A stretch of 45,226 bases of DNA from a virus (lineage: Duplodnaviria; Caudoviricetes), in the IMG/VR virus record IMGVR_UViG_3300022886_000003, positions 1 to 45,226 of that record; one strand, given 5' to 3'. Numbering within the stretch: position 1 is the first letter of the stretch; the number at the start of each line of letters is the position of its first letter. The translations under genes were made by a program, and so were the position numbers. Below are positions 1,175-26,830 of this stretch, one piece after another. The notes beneath the pieces were generated by a model. That model did not search any database. It worked only from the letters and a program-made list of their open reading frames with translations, and was not told where the DNA came from.

Positions 1175-1189
1175 ACGCCCTCCTGAGAA

Positions 1190-1267
1190 AATGGAACGGA
1201 CCGAGTGGCGTGTTGCAGCGCCCCCCGGTCCTGACCGATAAAACCTTTCGTGGAGGCTTTATGGCTA
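1190..1267 (-). ncRNA. Putative cis-antisense RNA to HNH-1 leader (SymR-like); ends approximate
   Basis: Antisense -10 TACAAT (plus 1274-1279); two hairpins joined by GGUCA; conserved in five copies. Confidence 0.6.
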
Positions 1268-1887
1268 AGACCGATTGTAGACCGCTGCCCGATCTCCCCC
1301 CCAAAGTTATTGCCCGATGTTGGAAATGGGTTGACCAAAGTGGTGGTCCGGACGCCTGCTGGCCTTGGACAGGTGCCAAGTCCAACGGCTATGGAAGAAT
1401 CACTATCGAGAAGCGCGGCGTTTGTGTGACTCGTATCTTCTACTTTCTCGCCACGGGGAAAGATCCCGGCTCTCTGCATGTGTGTCACCGCTGTGATTTT
1501 CCCGCCTGCTGTAACCCCGCCCATTTGTGGCTTGGAACTCCAGCCGACAATGTTCGCGACGCTGCTGCCAAGGGGCGCATGCTGTCTGGCGAAAACCACC
1601 CCTTTCGAAAGAATCCAGAGCTTGCGCCTCACGGCGATGCTCACTACACCCGGCGAAACCCGGAGCTTGTGAGGCGCGGGGATAATCACTACAACCGGCA
1701 GCATCCGGAGAACATGGCGCGTGGAGAAAGCCAGCCTAGCTCCAAGCTCAAAGAGGCCGACGTCATCGAGATCAGGCGACTCTACGCTGCGGGTTTGTCT
1801 CGATACCGGATTGCCAGAATCTTCAAAATGAGCGATCACGCGATCCGTCGTATCACAACTGGTGTTGGTTGGAAGCACGTACCCTGA
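1261..1887 (+). CDS. HNH endonuclease 1 (His-Me finger, three 15-aa repeats, C-terminal HTH)
   Basis: [64 protein letters not shown] before ATG 1261. Confidence 0.92.
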
Positions 1888-1892
1888 TCGGC

Positions 1893-1970
1893 TCATCCCA
1901 ATTCTCCCCAAAGGAAAGTCATCGACGCGAGGGCCATCACGGCGAGCAGGAGCGCATCGAGGTTCGTCAT
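1893..1970 (-). CDS. 25-aa hydrophobic peptide
   Basis: MTNLDALLLAVMALASMTFLWGELG; ATGA overlap with the upstream ORF. Confidence 0.45.
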   Translation of the reverse strand: MTNLDALLLAVMALASMTFLWGELG

Positions 1971-2047
1971 TTGGTGAGGTACCTCAGGGCCAGAAGGCAG
2001 CCGACGAACGCGGCGATGAGCAGGAGGTAGAACGTGGCTTCACTCAC
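1967..2047 (-). CDS. 26-aa hydrophobic peptide (alternatively the C-terminus of an 88-aa ORF starting at 2233)
   Basis: (V/M)SEATFYLLLIAAFVGCLLALRYLTK; GTGA overlap. Confidence 0.5.
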   Translation of the reverse strand: MSEATFYLLLIAAFVGCLLALRYLTK

Positions 2048-2121
2048 TGTTTCAATTCGTAAATCAAGTAGACGATGCCCACCACGATGACCGCGAGGAT
2101 GGCGATTTCGGGCCACGTCAT
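2044..2121 (-). CDS. 25-aa hydrophobic peptide
   Basis: MTWPEIAILAVIVVGIVYLIYELKQ; stop overlaps the next GTG. Confidence 0.5.
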   Translation of the reverse strand: MTWPEIAILAVIVVGIVYLIYELKQ

Positions 2122-2229
2122 CTCGCGTTTCCACATCGGCTCGAGACCCTTCAAATCCTGGAAGCGTAAAGGTGTGCGGCCCATAGAGGAACTTCATATT
2201 CGCATGTAATCGCGGATAGGCGTGAATTT

Positions 2230-2430
2230 TCATCGTGGAAAGAGCCTCGCCCCCCCGCCCACGCCGAGTTGATGGGCGAGGAAGAGCAGCAGCACGATCA
2301 GAAGTAACCCGCCCACGATCCACTTCACGGGAGCCGGCAGCGCGTAGGTGACGATGATCCAATTCAATCCCCACACTACGATTGCGAAGATGATGATCGC
2401 GATGATCAGGTAGATTAATTGATCGATCAT
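2230..2430 (-). CDS. Two-TM small membrane protein, holin candidate
   Basis: 66 aa, two hydrophobic helices separated by LPAP; GGAGG RBS. Confidence 0.7.
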   Translation of the reverse strand: MIDQLIYLIIAIIIFAIVVWGLNWIIVTYALPAPVKWIVGGLLLIVLLLFLAHQLGVGGGARLFPR

Positions 2431-24329: not shown

Positions 24330-24547
24330 GCGAACCCTGGAAGGCACGCACCGGCACCATCCCTGCCGGCACTACCCTCGACACACTGACCCACGCCCAG
24401 TGGAGAGAAGCCTCGCTCGCCGAGCGCGAAGCCTTCACCCGGCACTGGGCCAGGAATGGCTGGGCGAGCTTCGTCTGCCTGACCTGCGGCATGCCTTCCT
24501 GGCGCGGCGTGGCCTCATGCCCCGCCTGCAAGGAGGAGGAGAAGTGA
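24326..24547 (+). CDS. Small Zn-finger protein
   Basis: GTG after GGAGG; CLTC...CPAC. Confidence 0.65.
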   Translation: MSEPWKARTGTIPAGTTLDTLTHAQWREASLAEREAFTRHWARNGWASFVCLTCGMPSWRGVASCPACKEEEK

Positions 24548-24747
24548 GCGACAAGACCTGCCGTAATTGCAGGTACTGGCACGAGCGCTATGGCGATGCC
24601 GGCCTGTGCCAGCTCAACCCCAGGGTCTGGGCAGGCAGCAGTTGGGATTACCCGATCCAGCAGGACACCGATACCTGCAGCCACTTCCTGCCGCAGCTAG
24701 TGATGCAGCCCGTCGTGAAAGGCAAGGCTAAGCCGAGTGCCGCGTGA
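24544..24747 (+). CDS. Small 4-Cys protein, paralogue of 24138..24329
   Basis: CRNCRYW...GLCQLNP...YP.....TCSHF. Confidence 0.7.
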   Translation: MSDKTCRNCRYWHERYGDAGLCQLNPRVWAGSSWDYPIQQDTDTCSHFLPQLVMQPVVKGKAKPSAA

Positions 24748-24994
24748 TCCCTGGTTCCAGCGCCTGTGGTGGGAGATCTTCCCGCCGCCCATGATCAAGA
24801 TCAAAGTCACCTGCCACTACTTCGACATCGGCGACGAGCACACTAAGCTCAAGATCAACCTGATCGAGGTGACCGTGCGCGGCCCGTTCCCTGCCACACT
24901 ACGGCGCATCGTCAGGCAGGGCGGCATCATCACGCCGCACCAGTTCGTGCCGCTCGCCAAAGTCTTCCTGGTGGAGGAGATCGATGGCCCGTAA
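24737..24994 (+). CDS. Hypothetical protein
   Basis: 85 aa; operon packing. Confidence 0.6.
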   Translation: MPRDPWFQRLWWEIFPPPMIKIKVTCHYFDIGDEHTKLKINLIEVTVRGPFPATLRRIVRQGGIITPHQFVPLAKVFLVEEIDGP

Positions 24995-26207
24995 CTTCTC
25001 GAGCTGGATACGCAGCTACCTCGAGTACTGTGAATTCTCGGAGCCGCCGGAAATTTTCTCGTACTGGGTGGCGATTTCCACCATAGCTGGAGCCTTGCAG
25101 GGGAAGTGCTTTATCGACATGGGAACTTTTGAGTGGACTCCCCACTGTTATATTCTCCTGATCGGCCCGTCAGGCAGCGGTAAAACTACGGCGATAAATG
25201 CGGGCATGCGGCTGCTGCGGAAAGTGAAAGGCGTGCGCATGGGGAGCGAGTCCATCACTTGGCAAGCCGTAATTGACGAACTCGGCGACGCGGCAGCCGG
25301 AGGCACAGGTATACGTGCAAGGGGTGGGATACGGAAGCACTCCTCGGTCACCTACGGATTGGGGGAGTTGGGTACCTTCCTCGATCCCAGAGATAAAAAG
25401 CTGATGGCCGAACTGACCCAGTTGTGGTCTGGAGACGGCAGCGATGAATTCAAGCGGAGAACCCGGCGCGACGGCGGGCGCATCATCGAAAGACCACACC
25501 TCAACCTGATCGCAGGAGCGACACCAGCGTGGGTTTCAGAGAACCTGCCTCCGTCTCTCATTAGCACCGGGTTCACCAGCCGGTGCATTTTAGTCTTTGC
25601 GGAATCCAAGAAGACTTTGGTGCCCTACCCAAAGCGGGCTGCCGAGCAGGGCCGCGGCTACGTGCCAGACATGGCATCCAAACTCATTGAGGATCTGGAG
25701 AAGATCGCTCTGCTCAAAGGTGAGTTCACACTGTCCGAGCAGGCGTATGCCCTCGGCACGGATTGGTACATGCAATTTTCTAAACAGCCACCGGTGGGAT
25801 TATCCCCCGACACGTTCGGTGGCTACCTTCAGCGTCGACAAGCCCACGCTCACAAAATTTCTATGGCCATCTCTGCGGCGCAGGGAGACTCGATGATCAT
25901 TGAGGCCAAGCATCTCGAAGAAGCCATCACGATTTTGAGTTCAACCGAGAAAGCCATGCCGGAAGCCCTGGCAGGAGTGAACGATGAACTGCGGCCGGCG
26001 CTCCGCGTGGAGGAAACGCTCAGGAAGTATGGATCAGTACCGACGGTCGAGCTTTACCAGAGATTCCGAAGCAAGATGGACTGGCGTTCCTTTTGTGGAA
26101 TTCTGAAGAACCTGGAAGATGCCGGCTTGGTCGCTGAAGTAACGACCCAACATGGTAAAGCCGTTCGTTGGTTAGGTGCGGCACCCAAGGACAGCCTCCC
26201 CAGTTGA
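24984..26207 (+). CDS. DUF3987/YfjI-type P-loop ATPase, putative replicative helicase
   Basis: SEPP.IF..W.A.STIAGAL; Walker A GPSGSGKTT; ELGTFL; GFTSR arginine finger; C-terminal wHTH. Confidence 0.75.
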   Translation: MARNFSSWIRSYLEYCEFSEPPEIFSYWVAISTIAGALQGKCFIDMGTFEWTPHCYILLIGPSGSGKTTAINAGMRLLRKVKGVRMGSESITWQAVIDELGDAAAGGTGIRARGGIRKHSSVTYGLGELGTFLDPRDKKLMAELTQLWSGDGSDEFKRRTRRDGGRIIERPHLNLIAGATPAWVSENLPPSLISTGFTSRCILVFAESKKTLVPYPKRAAEQGRGYVPDMASKLIEDLEKIALLKGEFTLSEQAYALGTDWYMQFSKQPPVGLSPDTFGGYLQRRQAHAHKISMAISAAQGDSMIIEAKHLEEAITILSSTEKAMPEALAGVNDELRPALRVEETLRKYGSVPTVELYQRFRSKMDWRSFCGILKNLEDAGLVAEVTTQHGKAVRWLGAAPKDSLPS

Positions 26208-26209
26208 TG

Positions 26210-26737
26210 CTAGATGTGCTTCCATTTCTTTCGATTGATGATGTAGAAAATTGTCGGCGTGGCAACCTCGAACATGAAGGCAATATCGCGCTGCAACCAG
26301 CCACCGGCGTAGAGTTCTCTGATCGCCAGAACGTCACCTTCCGTTAACTTGGAGTGGTTCTTTTCGCCTCGCTTCAAAAGTTCCGGGTGTGTTCGGTAGA
26401 GATGTTCGTCTTTCCATTTCATGCGTCCCTTGAGGGAAGCGTCGTGCATGTTGTCCTTCGAGGTACCGAGGAACAGATGGGCCGGGTTCTGACAGGCGGG
26501 TCGATCACATTTGTGACAGACGTGGAGAGCACCGGGGTCTACACCATAGCTGAGGAAGTAGGCCACTCGATGCGCAAGCATGTCGAATGCTCCAACACTG
26601 AACGATCCATACCCTGAATCATTCAACGCGCCCTTCCACAACCAGCATTCATCAGGACCACGCTTGTCTAATCTCGACCAATAACGGACGATGTTCTTCT
26701 CGGTAAAAGCAGGCAGTCTACAATCTCTCTTAGCCAT
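26210..26737 (-). CDS. HNH endonuclease 5
   Basis: ECWLWKG..SGYGSF; AHRVAYFL; VCHKCDRPACQNPAHLFLGTSKDNMHD; HTH; WKHI. Confidence 0.92.
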   Translation of the reverse strand: MAKRDCRLPAFTEKNIVRYWSRLDKRGPDECWLWKGALNDSGYGSFSVGAFDMLAHRVAYFLSYGVDPGALHVCHKCDRPACQNPAHLFLGTSKDNMHDASLKGRMKWKDEHLYRTHPELLKRGEKNHSKLTEGDVLAIRELYAGGWLQRDIAFMFEVATPTIFYIINRKKWKHI

Positions 26738-26806
26738 GCGATCTCTACTCCAGGTCGTAAGGTCAGGGCCGTCTCGATGCGACTAACATCGTGGCGGCTC
26801 GATTGA
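26731..26806 (+). ncRNA. Putative cis-antisense RNA to HNH-5 leader
   Basis: -10 TACAAT 26719-24; hairpins CGATCT/AGGTCG and GGGCCG..CGATG/CATCG..CGGCTC; opposing TGaCATAAT (26806-11). Confidence 0.6.
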
Positions 26807-26830
26807 TTATGTCATGGACTCGCTGCCGAG

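Follow-up and report, generated by a model that had tools for sequence, protein, structure and literature searches.

The virus record IMGVR_UViG_3300022886_000003 (Duplodnaviria; Caudoviricetes) carries five HNH nuclease genes, H1–H5, each headed by the same small leader cassette, in which two hairpins lie between a putative sense promoter and a putative antisense promoter set inside the first codons. These units are likely to be free-standing homing endonuclease genes in which the cassette specifies a stable antisense RNA of about 70–80 nucleotides (nt) that caps translation of the nuclease. The DNA analysed, called the window below, is the complete record of 45,226 bases. The parts of each unit are as follows; the boxes were assigned from the sequence, and the bit scores given for RNAs refer to the covariance model R2 described below.

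1261–1887, plus strand: H1, HNH endonuclease of 208 residues with a C-terminal helix-turn-helix (HTH) (Pfam HNH_3 at E 1e-4, under the cut-off; HTH match weak; PHROG endonuclease at E 2e-26)
1187–1192, plus strand: H1 putative sense -10 box GAAAAT, a poor one, of presumed function
1194–1266, minus strand: H1 predicted antisense RNA, 5' end at ATG+5, 3' end approximate (fold; 51.8 bits)
1274–1279, minus strand: H1 putative antisense -10 box TACAAT, in codons 5–7 (position kept across the family)
2520–3113, plus strand: H2, HNH endonuclease of 197 residues (HNH_3 at E 0.0017, under the cut-off; PHROG scan; alignment)
2447–2452, plus strand: H2 putative sense -10 box CATAAT
2454–2525, minus strand: H2 predicted antisense RNA, hairpin II at 2458–2490 (52.3 bits)
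2533–2538, minus strand: H2 putative antisense -10 box TACAAT
6596–7153, plus strand: H3, HNH endonuclease of 185 residues (HNH_3 at 35.5 bits, over the cut-off)
6521–6526, plus strand: H3 putative sense -10 box TATAAT
6528–6601, minus strand: H3 predicted antisense RNA, hairpin II at 6532–6565 (58.4 bits)
6609–6614, minus strand: H3 putative antisense -10 box TAAACT
9794–10300, plus strand: H4, HNH endonuclease of 168 residues (Pfam; loci of relatives)
9719–9724, plus strand: H4 putative sense -10 box TACAAT, overlapping the start codon of a minus-strand methylase open reading frame (ORF), 8430–9719
9727–9799, minus strand: H4 predicted antisense RNA, hairpin II at 9731–9764 (59 bits)
9807–9812, minus strand: H4 putative antisense -10 box TAGGCT, hexamer and offset as in RSF1010 repA
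26210–26737, minus strand: H5, HNH endonuclease of 175 residues (HNH_3 at 31.3 bits, over the cut-off; PHROG scan)
26806–26811, minus strand: H5 putative sense -10 box CATAAT
26732–26804, plus strand: H5 predicted antisense RNA, hairpin II at 26766–26800 (47.8 bits)
26719–26724, plus strand: H5 putative antisense -10 box TACAAT

The five leaders are located where a preliminary description of this DNA had placed them, and they align as it proposed. The sense -10-like hexamers stand 5, 5, 5, 6 and 5 nt (H1–H5) ahead of the outer stem, the motifs TGACC and ATGGCT are invariant, and the opposite strand carries the antisense hexamers at offsets 13–18, counted from the A of the ATG. At H2 the GGAGG of the minus-strand gene starting at 2430 directly adjoins the sense -10 box. 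The antisense RNA of H1 is predicted to run from hairpin I, over the ATG and the Shine–Dalgarno (SD) sequence, through a GUCA linker to hairpin II (1198–1231). In all five leaders the antisense strand is the better folder (z of -3.1 to -7.4, against +0.1 to -4.7 for the sense strand). The mRNA-strand mismatch that becomes a G–U pair in the antisense RNA, to which the earlier work had drawn attention, is present in every SD hairpin and in the 6 bp outer stem of H2, H3 and H5; the inner hairpin was less exactly described, since the inner stem of H2 also has a sense-strand mismatch. Burial of the SD on the mRNA, claimed for all copies, is predicted for H1, H3 and H4; in H2 it is only partial (predicted unpaired 0.48), as it is in H5 (0.72). 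Divergence of the loops had been put forward as a possible guard against cross-talk. Insulation between the window copies is incomplete: H1 and H3 share 16 nt that include loop II, and H3 and H4 share 21 nt that include loop I, although both loops are never common to one pair.

To place these leaders in a wider family, viral sequences were searched with two patterns, in which nothing of the coding part was fixed beyond ATGGCT (or ATG). The resulting viral sets, at least 121 stretches (about 290 estimated) and 50 stretches, gave 150 distinct leaders (145 starting ATGGC) and, after dereplication at 80%, 139, of which 137 were used; L107, an evident chance match, and L198, a copy of H2, were left out. 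The control set comprised 141 gene starts from HNH loci. A TA at offset 16 or 17 occurs in 109 of the 137 leaders and in 11 controls, AnnnTA at 12 or 13 in 54 leaders against one control, and CAA at 38 or 39 in 54 against two. Read on the opposite strand, these are a TAnnnT -10 element with a TTG, as of a -35 element, 17 bases upstream. This sequence pattern of an antisense promoter is kept across the family, despite the fact that codon 6 encodes 18 different amino acids, and the RNA start that it implies is the base opposite ATG+5. Such family-wide statistics support the cis-antisense RNA and first-codon promoter predicted earlier. The same pattern is found in at least 120 stretches of bacterial genomes (about 390 estimated), many of them from Proteobacteria; in this unfiltered set, chance matches included, the TA is in the same place in 73 of 116. 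A variant pattern yielded mostly chance matches, five of 88 distinct ones passing a filter on fold and ORF, and blastn searches of phages and plasmids with single leaders gave short matches only.

Anti-SD-like bases form the opening of loop I in 111 of the 137 folds, and loop II takes two reverse-complement forms (44 and 20 of 110 leaders). The U-tracts 3' of hairpin II are modest, with a mean of 4.2 T per 10 nt in 108 leaders. The idea of a U-turn was dropped, as YUNR occurs in the antisense loop of 46 of 108 leaders and in the sense loop of 43, both near a rough estimate of chance.

Which strand is under selection was judged from the pairs themselves. The antisense fold is the more stable in 133 of the 137 leaders and in 58 of the 141 controls, a difference partly built in by the search patterns. 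Because of this bias we used a symmetric test on the parts that the patterns leave free, in which folding was restricted to Watson–Crick pairs and 1 × 1 mismatches were scored by strand. Mismatches that are G–U on the antisense strand outnumber those that are G–U on the sense strand by 25:1 in the SD hairpin (137 leaders) and by 23:3 in the inner part of hairpin II (108 leaders), and the ratios are nearly unchanged if the sense strand is folded instead. The suggestion that selection acts on the antisense RNA is borne out in this wider family, and the mRNA-strand selection expected of a T4-type hairpin over the ribosome-binding site (RBS) is not seen. When 102 leaders were aligned by fitting them to the model, two-sided change was seen at 19 of 24 pairs (441 cells), a value reached by none of 500 shuffles, with slid controls at 46–121. 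RNAalifold on a MAFFT alignment recovered the outer stem only. The basal helix was fixed by the search patterns; in a divergent HNH leader of the related phages G001, G003 and G004 (16.6–20.2 bits) its letters are changed on both sides, as judged by eye, and TAGAAT is kept at offset 13–18 in G001 and G004, again by eye.

The covariance model R2 was built from 102 other phage leaders, excluding the window, its close relatives, SymR and RepX; its rows were aligned by R1, a model that had seen the window, and its E-values are rough. In a search of 98.9 kb with filters off, R2 recovers the five window copies at 47.8–59 bits, the antisense strand of RSF1010 repA at 46.2 bits and Escherichia coli SymR at 34.5 bits, the latter two from ATG+5, the SymR match beginning at the annotated first base of that RNA. 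Apart from RepX and SymR, the next-best full-length match scores 13.2 bits.

The likeness to symE/SymR pointed out earlier is upheld in layout. SymR (RF01809) is a 77 nt RNA of two hairpins over SD and ATG, made from a promoter within the coding sequence, with the -10 box at offset 13–18 and the start at ATG+5, and the window cassettes share this plan. The payload and its control differ: symE encodes an AbrB-fold protein under LexA control, whereas the window genes encode HNH proteins and an E. coli-type LexA box (CTG-N10-CAG), present at symE, is absent within 160 nt of the five starts. Mutation of the symR -10 box abolished SymR (PMC1891008) and raised SymE protein seven-fold (review PMC4147584), and SymR showed almost no decay in 60 min (PMC1891008). 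RepX of the IncQ plasmids R1162/RSF1010 (RF00043) outscores SymR with R2, so the earlier picture of a SymR-like HNH cassette was too narrow. It is a 74–75 nt RNA over the repA RBS and start codon with two probed stem-loops, stable over 240 min (PMC8136791); one review table lists IncQ plasmids as having no antisense system (PMC12361487), contrary to that account. By sequence, the window copies have the same two stem-loops antisense to RBS and start codon, both begin the gene with ATGGCT, and the TAGGCT of H4 at offset 13–18 is shared. RepX differs in its target, a plasmid helicase, and in its role, which is copy-number control.

In the Rfam scan, nothing in the window reaches a gathering cut-off. 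RF01809 (cut-off 61 bits) has no window match at E<=5, its best relatives scoring 44 bits (L294) and 30.6 bits (RHph_N3_2). RF00043 (cut-off 55 bits) reaches 26.1 bits at H4, 25.9 at H2 and at most 43.9 in bacterial copies. Although described as an antisense RNA, RF00043 matches the repA mRNA strand (L396:2820–2894, pRSF1010) and seems to be modelled on the target strand, which accounts for its weak sense-strand matches at H2 and H4. RF01811 (PtaRNA1, cut-off 47 bits) has no window match and a top relative at 41 bits; run over five genomes it gave no match, controls included. The three families match bacterial copies of the motif at 27.5–44 bits, all under the cut-offs, and no clan is listed for any of them. 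As judged from sequence, the window copies would work like RepX and SymR, yet they are outside those Rfam families as defined. The PtaRNA1 consensus in Rfam has the layout of the cassette and matches motif copies at 27.5–41 bits and the RepX locus at 28.9 bits, a likeness that concerns this consensus and not an actual PtaRNA1 locus.

A blind test was made on pSymB of Sinorhizobium meliloti 1021, where R2 has two matches, with predicted starts at 678026 and 653942 on the minus strand. Minus-strand starts have been mapped at 678026, that of SmelB064 (677946–678026), and at 653943 (PMC3616915), so that both model matches fall on a mapped start, one exactly and the other one base off. The probability of such a coincidence is <1% per site (17,001 genome starts, random 3-base window) and higher in intergenic DNA. 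SmelB064, at 81 nt, matches R2 at 53.4 bits and has an identical 5' end; it differs in being listed as a trans-encoded small RNA, its opposite ORF is an unannotated one of 47 residues, and it falls within no Rfam family. Neither pSymA nor pXCV183 has an R2 match, so that asX6, asX7 and sX15 are unmatched, and on pSLT it gave a 14-bit match only, FinP being unmatched. IS10 RNA-OUT and P22 Sar are likewise antisense RNAs of about 70 nt, lying over the RBS of a gene from a mobile element or phage, with a promoter at the start of the target gene. Their Rfam families are absent from the scans of the window and motif loci, and the likeness is functional only.

We turn to the genes that follow the cassette. 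The search proposed earlier shows that 53 of 130 downstream viral ORFs (>=45 residues; about 30 clipped by the locus edge; raw count) match nuclease families: 47 are HNH-type, four GIY-YIG, one LAGLIDADG and one endonuclease VII. Other viral payloads include Rha, MT-A70 and DUF6907, and the cassette is neither HNH-specific nor only SymR-like. Conversely, among HNH relatives picked by protein similarity the cassette is at the start of 14 of 76, three of the 14 having copies in the training set of the model used there. Cultured phages also carry the cassette, and three of five records tested have a match. In Rhizobium phage RHph_N3_2, HNH genes follow two of the three copies and an 11-codon remnant follows the third; the single copy in RHph_X2_25 precedes an annotated homing endonuclease. 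Mx9, phiLM21 and AP-16-3 gave no cassette match. Cassettes in L095, L111, L116, L202 and L289 are followed by similar ORFs of 14–20 codons, perhaps leader peptides or remnants. The int-alpA Rfam motif lies about 0.3–1.4 kb from cassettes in L274, L288, L291, L313, L318 and L523, which suggests that integrative elements carry both. Downstream of an HNH gene of RHph_N3_2, L521:2273–2433 is weakly matched as YrlA (34.9 bits) and as a tRNA-Sec-like sequence (28.1 bits).

The five window proteins are matched by Pfam HNH_3, in H3 and H5 over the cut-off. H2–H5 are 46–50% identical to H1, and each protein (168–208 residues) has a C-terminal HTH-like part. Alignment shows the His, Cys and Asn residues of an HNH/His-Cys domain to be conserved, with His76, Cys78, Cys83, Asn85, His88 and Asn97 invariant, which we take to be catalytic and zinc-binding. 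The phage has a SU10-type capsid, a P22-like portal, a terminase, a primase and a RecT-like protein; the scans of window ORFs (41 against Pfam; 20 and 42 against PHROGs) identified neither an integrase nor a repressor. All five genes lie tail-to-tail with their downstream neighbour, H2 with the terminase large subunit gene (3110–4621, minus strand) and H5 with a primase-like gene (24984–26207), and H1–H4 are inverted within a block of minus-strand genes. A sixth HNH gene, 23425–24141, has a leader without the cassette.

The units are optional between conserved genes, as the proposal that they are mobile would have it. Site 1 is empty in two of seven relatives, site 2 in three of six, site 3 in none of three, site 4 in two of two (G001 and G002, where the methylase and H4 are missing together) and site 5 in the single relative available. 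Occupants of the same site are different proteins, 47–56% identical to those of the window, with the exception of L001, which has an identical H2. At sites 1 and 2 the left end of the cassette gives the next minus-strand gene a new SD. The window terminase is 99% identical to that of L001 and 60–64% to those of others, and terminase alleles do not sort one-to-one with occupancy of site 2; L001 alone fits a co-conversion of terminase and site 2, which is not established.

Our interpretation supposes the following sequence of events. The sense promoter would start the mRNA near the foot of hairpin II, while the first-codon promoter, starting at ATG+5, would give an RNA of 70–80 nt that is complementary to the entire leader, including the SD, and to the ATG. 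The anti-SD-like bases of loop I are a plausible place for pairing to begin. Pairing over the RBS and start codon would then lower the amount of nuclease made, and by analogy with SymR and RepX such repression of translation is likely. Antisense output would scale with the number of templates, and the nuclease would in consequence be limited while phage DNA replicates. Its own promoters and this brake would let a unit sit in either orientation; the next minus-strand gene at sites 1 and 2 could also be supplied by read-through, and outward transcription of downstream genes may be an incidental gain.

Several observations weigh against this interpretation. For this phage the antisense RNA, the repression, cleavage and homing are all predictions from DNA sequence. 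The -35 boxes are poor in all five window copies, as had been remarked before, and likewise in symE and repA; a consensus scan of 1000–10500 called none of the four antisense promoters there and no terminator at the RNA ends. Helix 1 and a portion of hairpin II were set by the search patterns, the alignments had been made to fit the structure, and sequences related to one another remain after dereplication at 80%. When R1 was run with filters on over the entire E. coli chromosome, SymR was not among its matches. Three of the five HNH proteins are under the HNH_3 cut-off, and they matched no solved nuclease structure in the PDB. Bacterial payloads are HNH in three of 70 scanned and are mostly small unknown ORFs. 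Finally, the authors of the start map regard each pSymB start as a (putative) start of the mRNA for the following gene on the minus strand, and no plus-strand start is tabulated for either of the 30-base stretches of pSymB checked (PMC3616915).

The preliminary description likened the units to type I toxin–antitoxin loci, and its interpretation is partly supported on the whole, this framing being its weak part. In an addiction module, the RNA would decay once the phage DNA is lost, leaving the nuclease to kill the cell. The layout equals that of symE/symR and resembles that of PtaRNA1, both filed in Rfam as antitoxins, a DNase is a plausible toxin, and the cultured RHph_N3_2 has an integrase together with two HNH cassettes. 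We nevertheless hold addiction to be improbable, because SymR and RepX are, unlike Sok, very stable (PMC1891008, PMC8136791); moreover, the target of RepX is a helicase rather than a toxin, the window ORFs scanned include no named integrase or repressor, and presence or absence beside terminase and primase genes fits homing endonucleases.

Equally small is the chance we give to the possibility that the promoter points outward, mainly rescuing transcription of genes downstream of an inverted insertion, with the structured RNA as their 5' leader. The new SD at sites 1 and 2, the abutment on the methylase start at site 4, the mRNA-start class of both pSymB starts and the modest U-tracts after hairpin II would all suit it. 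However, at H5 such a promoter is directed at a convergent gene, whose 3' end it would meet first, and the upstream neighbour is co-directional in 36 of the 62 loci with a call (crude ORF calls). The conserved anti-SD/anti-ATG hairpin I and the discrete 74–81 nt SymR, RepX and SmelB064 would also be left unexplained.

Control by hairpins on the mRNA, with an irrelevant antisense RNA, is known from T-even phages, where a stem hides the RBS of I-TevI, I-TevII, I-TevIII, segB and Aeh1 mobE on early transcripts (PMC2988022, PMC2677866). It has in common with the cassette the presumed aim of limiting homing endonuclease translation at the RBS, and the SD pairing predicted in H1, H3 and H4 would agree with it; it differs in that the mRNA itself is acted on in cis and a late promoter is involved, and the available parts of these sources describe no antisense regulator. 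The wobble bias of 25:1 and 23:3 and, with the reservation made above about the patterns, the better antisense folds argue for the other strand, and the -10 and -35 elements inside codons would have no explanation, so we consider mRNA-side control very unlikely here. A role of the RNA as a nuclease-bound guide or scaffold is barely credible: it is a structured RNA with variable loops adjoining a nuclease gene, but the cassette precedes unrelated folds (GIY-YIG, LAGLIDADG, Rha, MT-A70, RadC, RepA, SymE), HNH + HTH proteins of 168–208 residues leave no room for an RNA-binding lobe, and the RNA is complementary over its full length to the start of its own mRNA. A ribozyme was also considered and, like the guide RNA, found no support.

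Avoidance of self-damage by phage homing endonucleases is known mainly from the late-promoter hairpins of T-even phages. The antisense cassette suggests that there is a second and widespread answer to this problem, contained in the leader and the ~45 coding bases that follow it; it would also account for the persistence of such genes in operons where they lie backwards. Three Rfam families, not joined in any clan, are connected by it: the antitoxin of a toxin, an RNA that sets plasmid copy number, and PtaRNA1. For the orphan S. meliloti RNA SmelB064 it implies a likely role. More speculatively, and we would sooner doubt than accept it at present, SymR, RepX, PtaRNA1 and SmelB064 may form one so far unrecognised superfamily of portable antisense cassettes, borne in phages mainly by homing endonuclease genes from four nuclease families. 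Such a stable RNA could then be both a copy-number governor and an immunity signal: the nuclease would fire on entry into a cell that lacks the cognate RNA and be silenced as copies accumulate or by the RNA of a resident phage, and the two variable loops would tune several nucleases in one genome mostly apart. A literature search, with most subscription journals and bioRxiv supplements outside its coverage, returned no paper on antisense cassettes of phage homing endonuclease genes and none uniting SymR, RepX, PtaRNA1 and SmelB064.

A few further observations concern the related phages and the rest of the window. A divergent form of the cassette, with an ATGYC start and a GACAYC linker, occurs at L388:~17380–17500, L393:~11434–11520 and L392:6557–6631; its HNH gene sits between structural genes in related phages, and the window is without that unit. 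At site 3 of G003, a record with many frameshifts, L391:13142–14069 holds two tandem HNH genes, the first with a cassette and apparently broken, the second without. Beside site 1, the minus-strand gene at 594–1134 is very variable, 31–89% identical among relatives, while capsid and portal are mostly >90%. Next to H4, 8430–9719 and 8486–9622 (minus strand) are long overlapping frames, both matching DNA methyltransferase families; two-subunit C5 methylases with a nested gene offer a parallel. A lone GC-rich hairpin with a T-rich tail at 11633–11697 (minus strand) resembles hairpin II (13 bits) and is probably a terminator. At 13318–13379 (plus strand), just upstream of a GP88-family gene (13397–14170), is a type II hammerhead-like sequence of 31.7 bits (cut-off 37), in which stem II looks short; it is identical in the relative G002.

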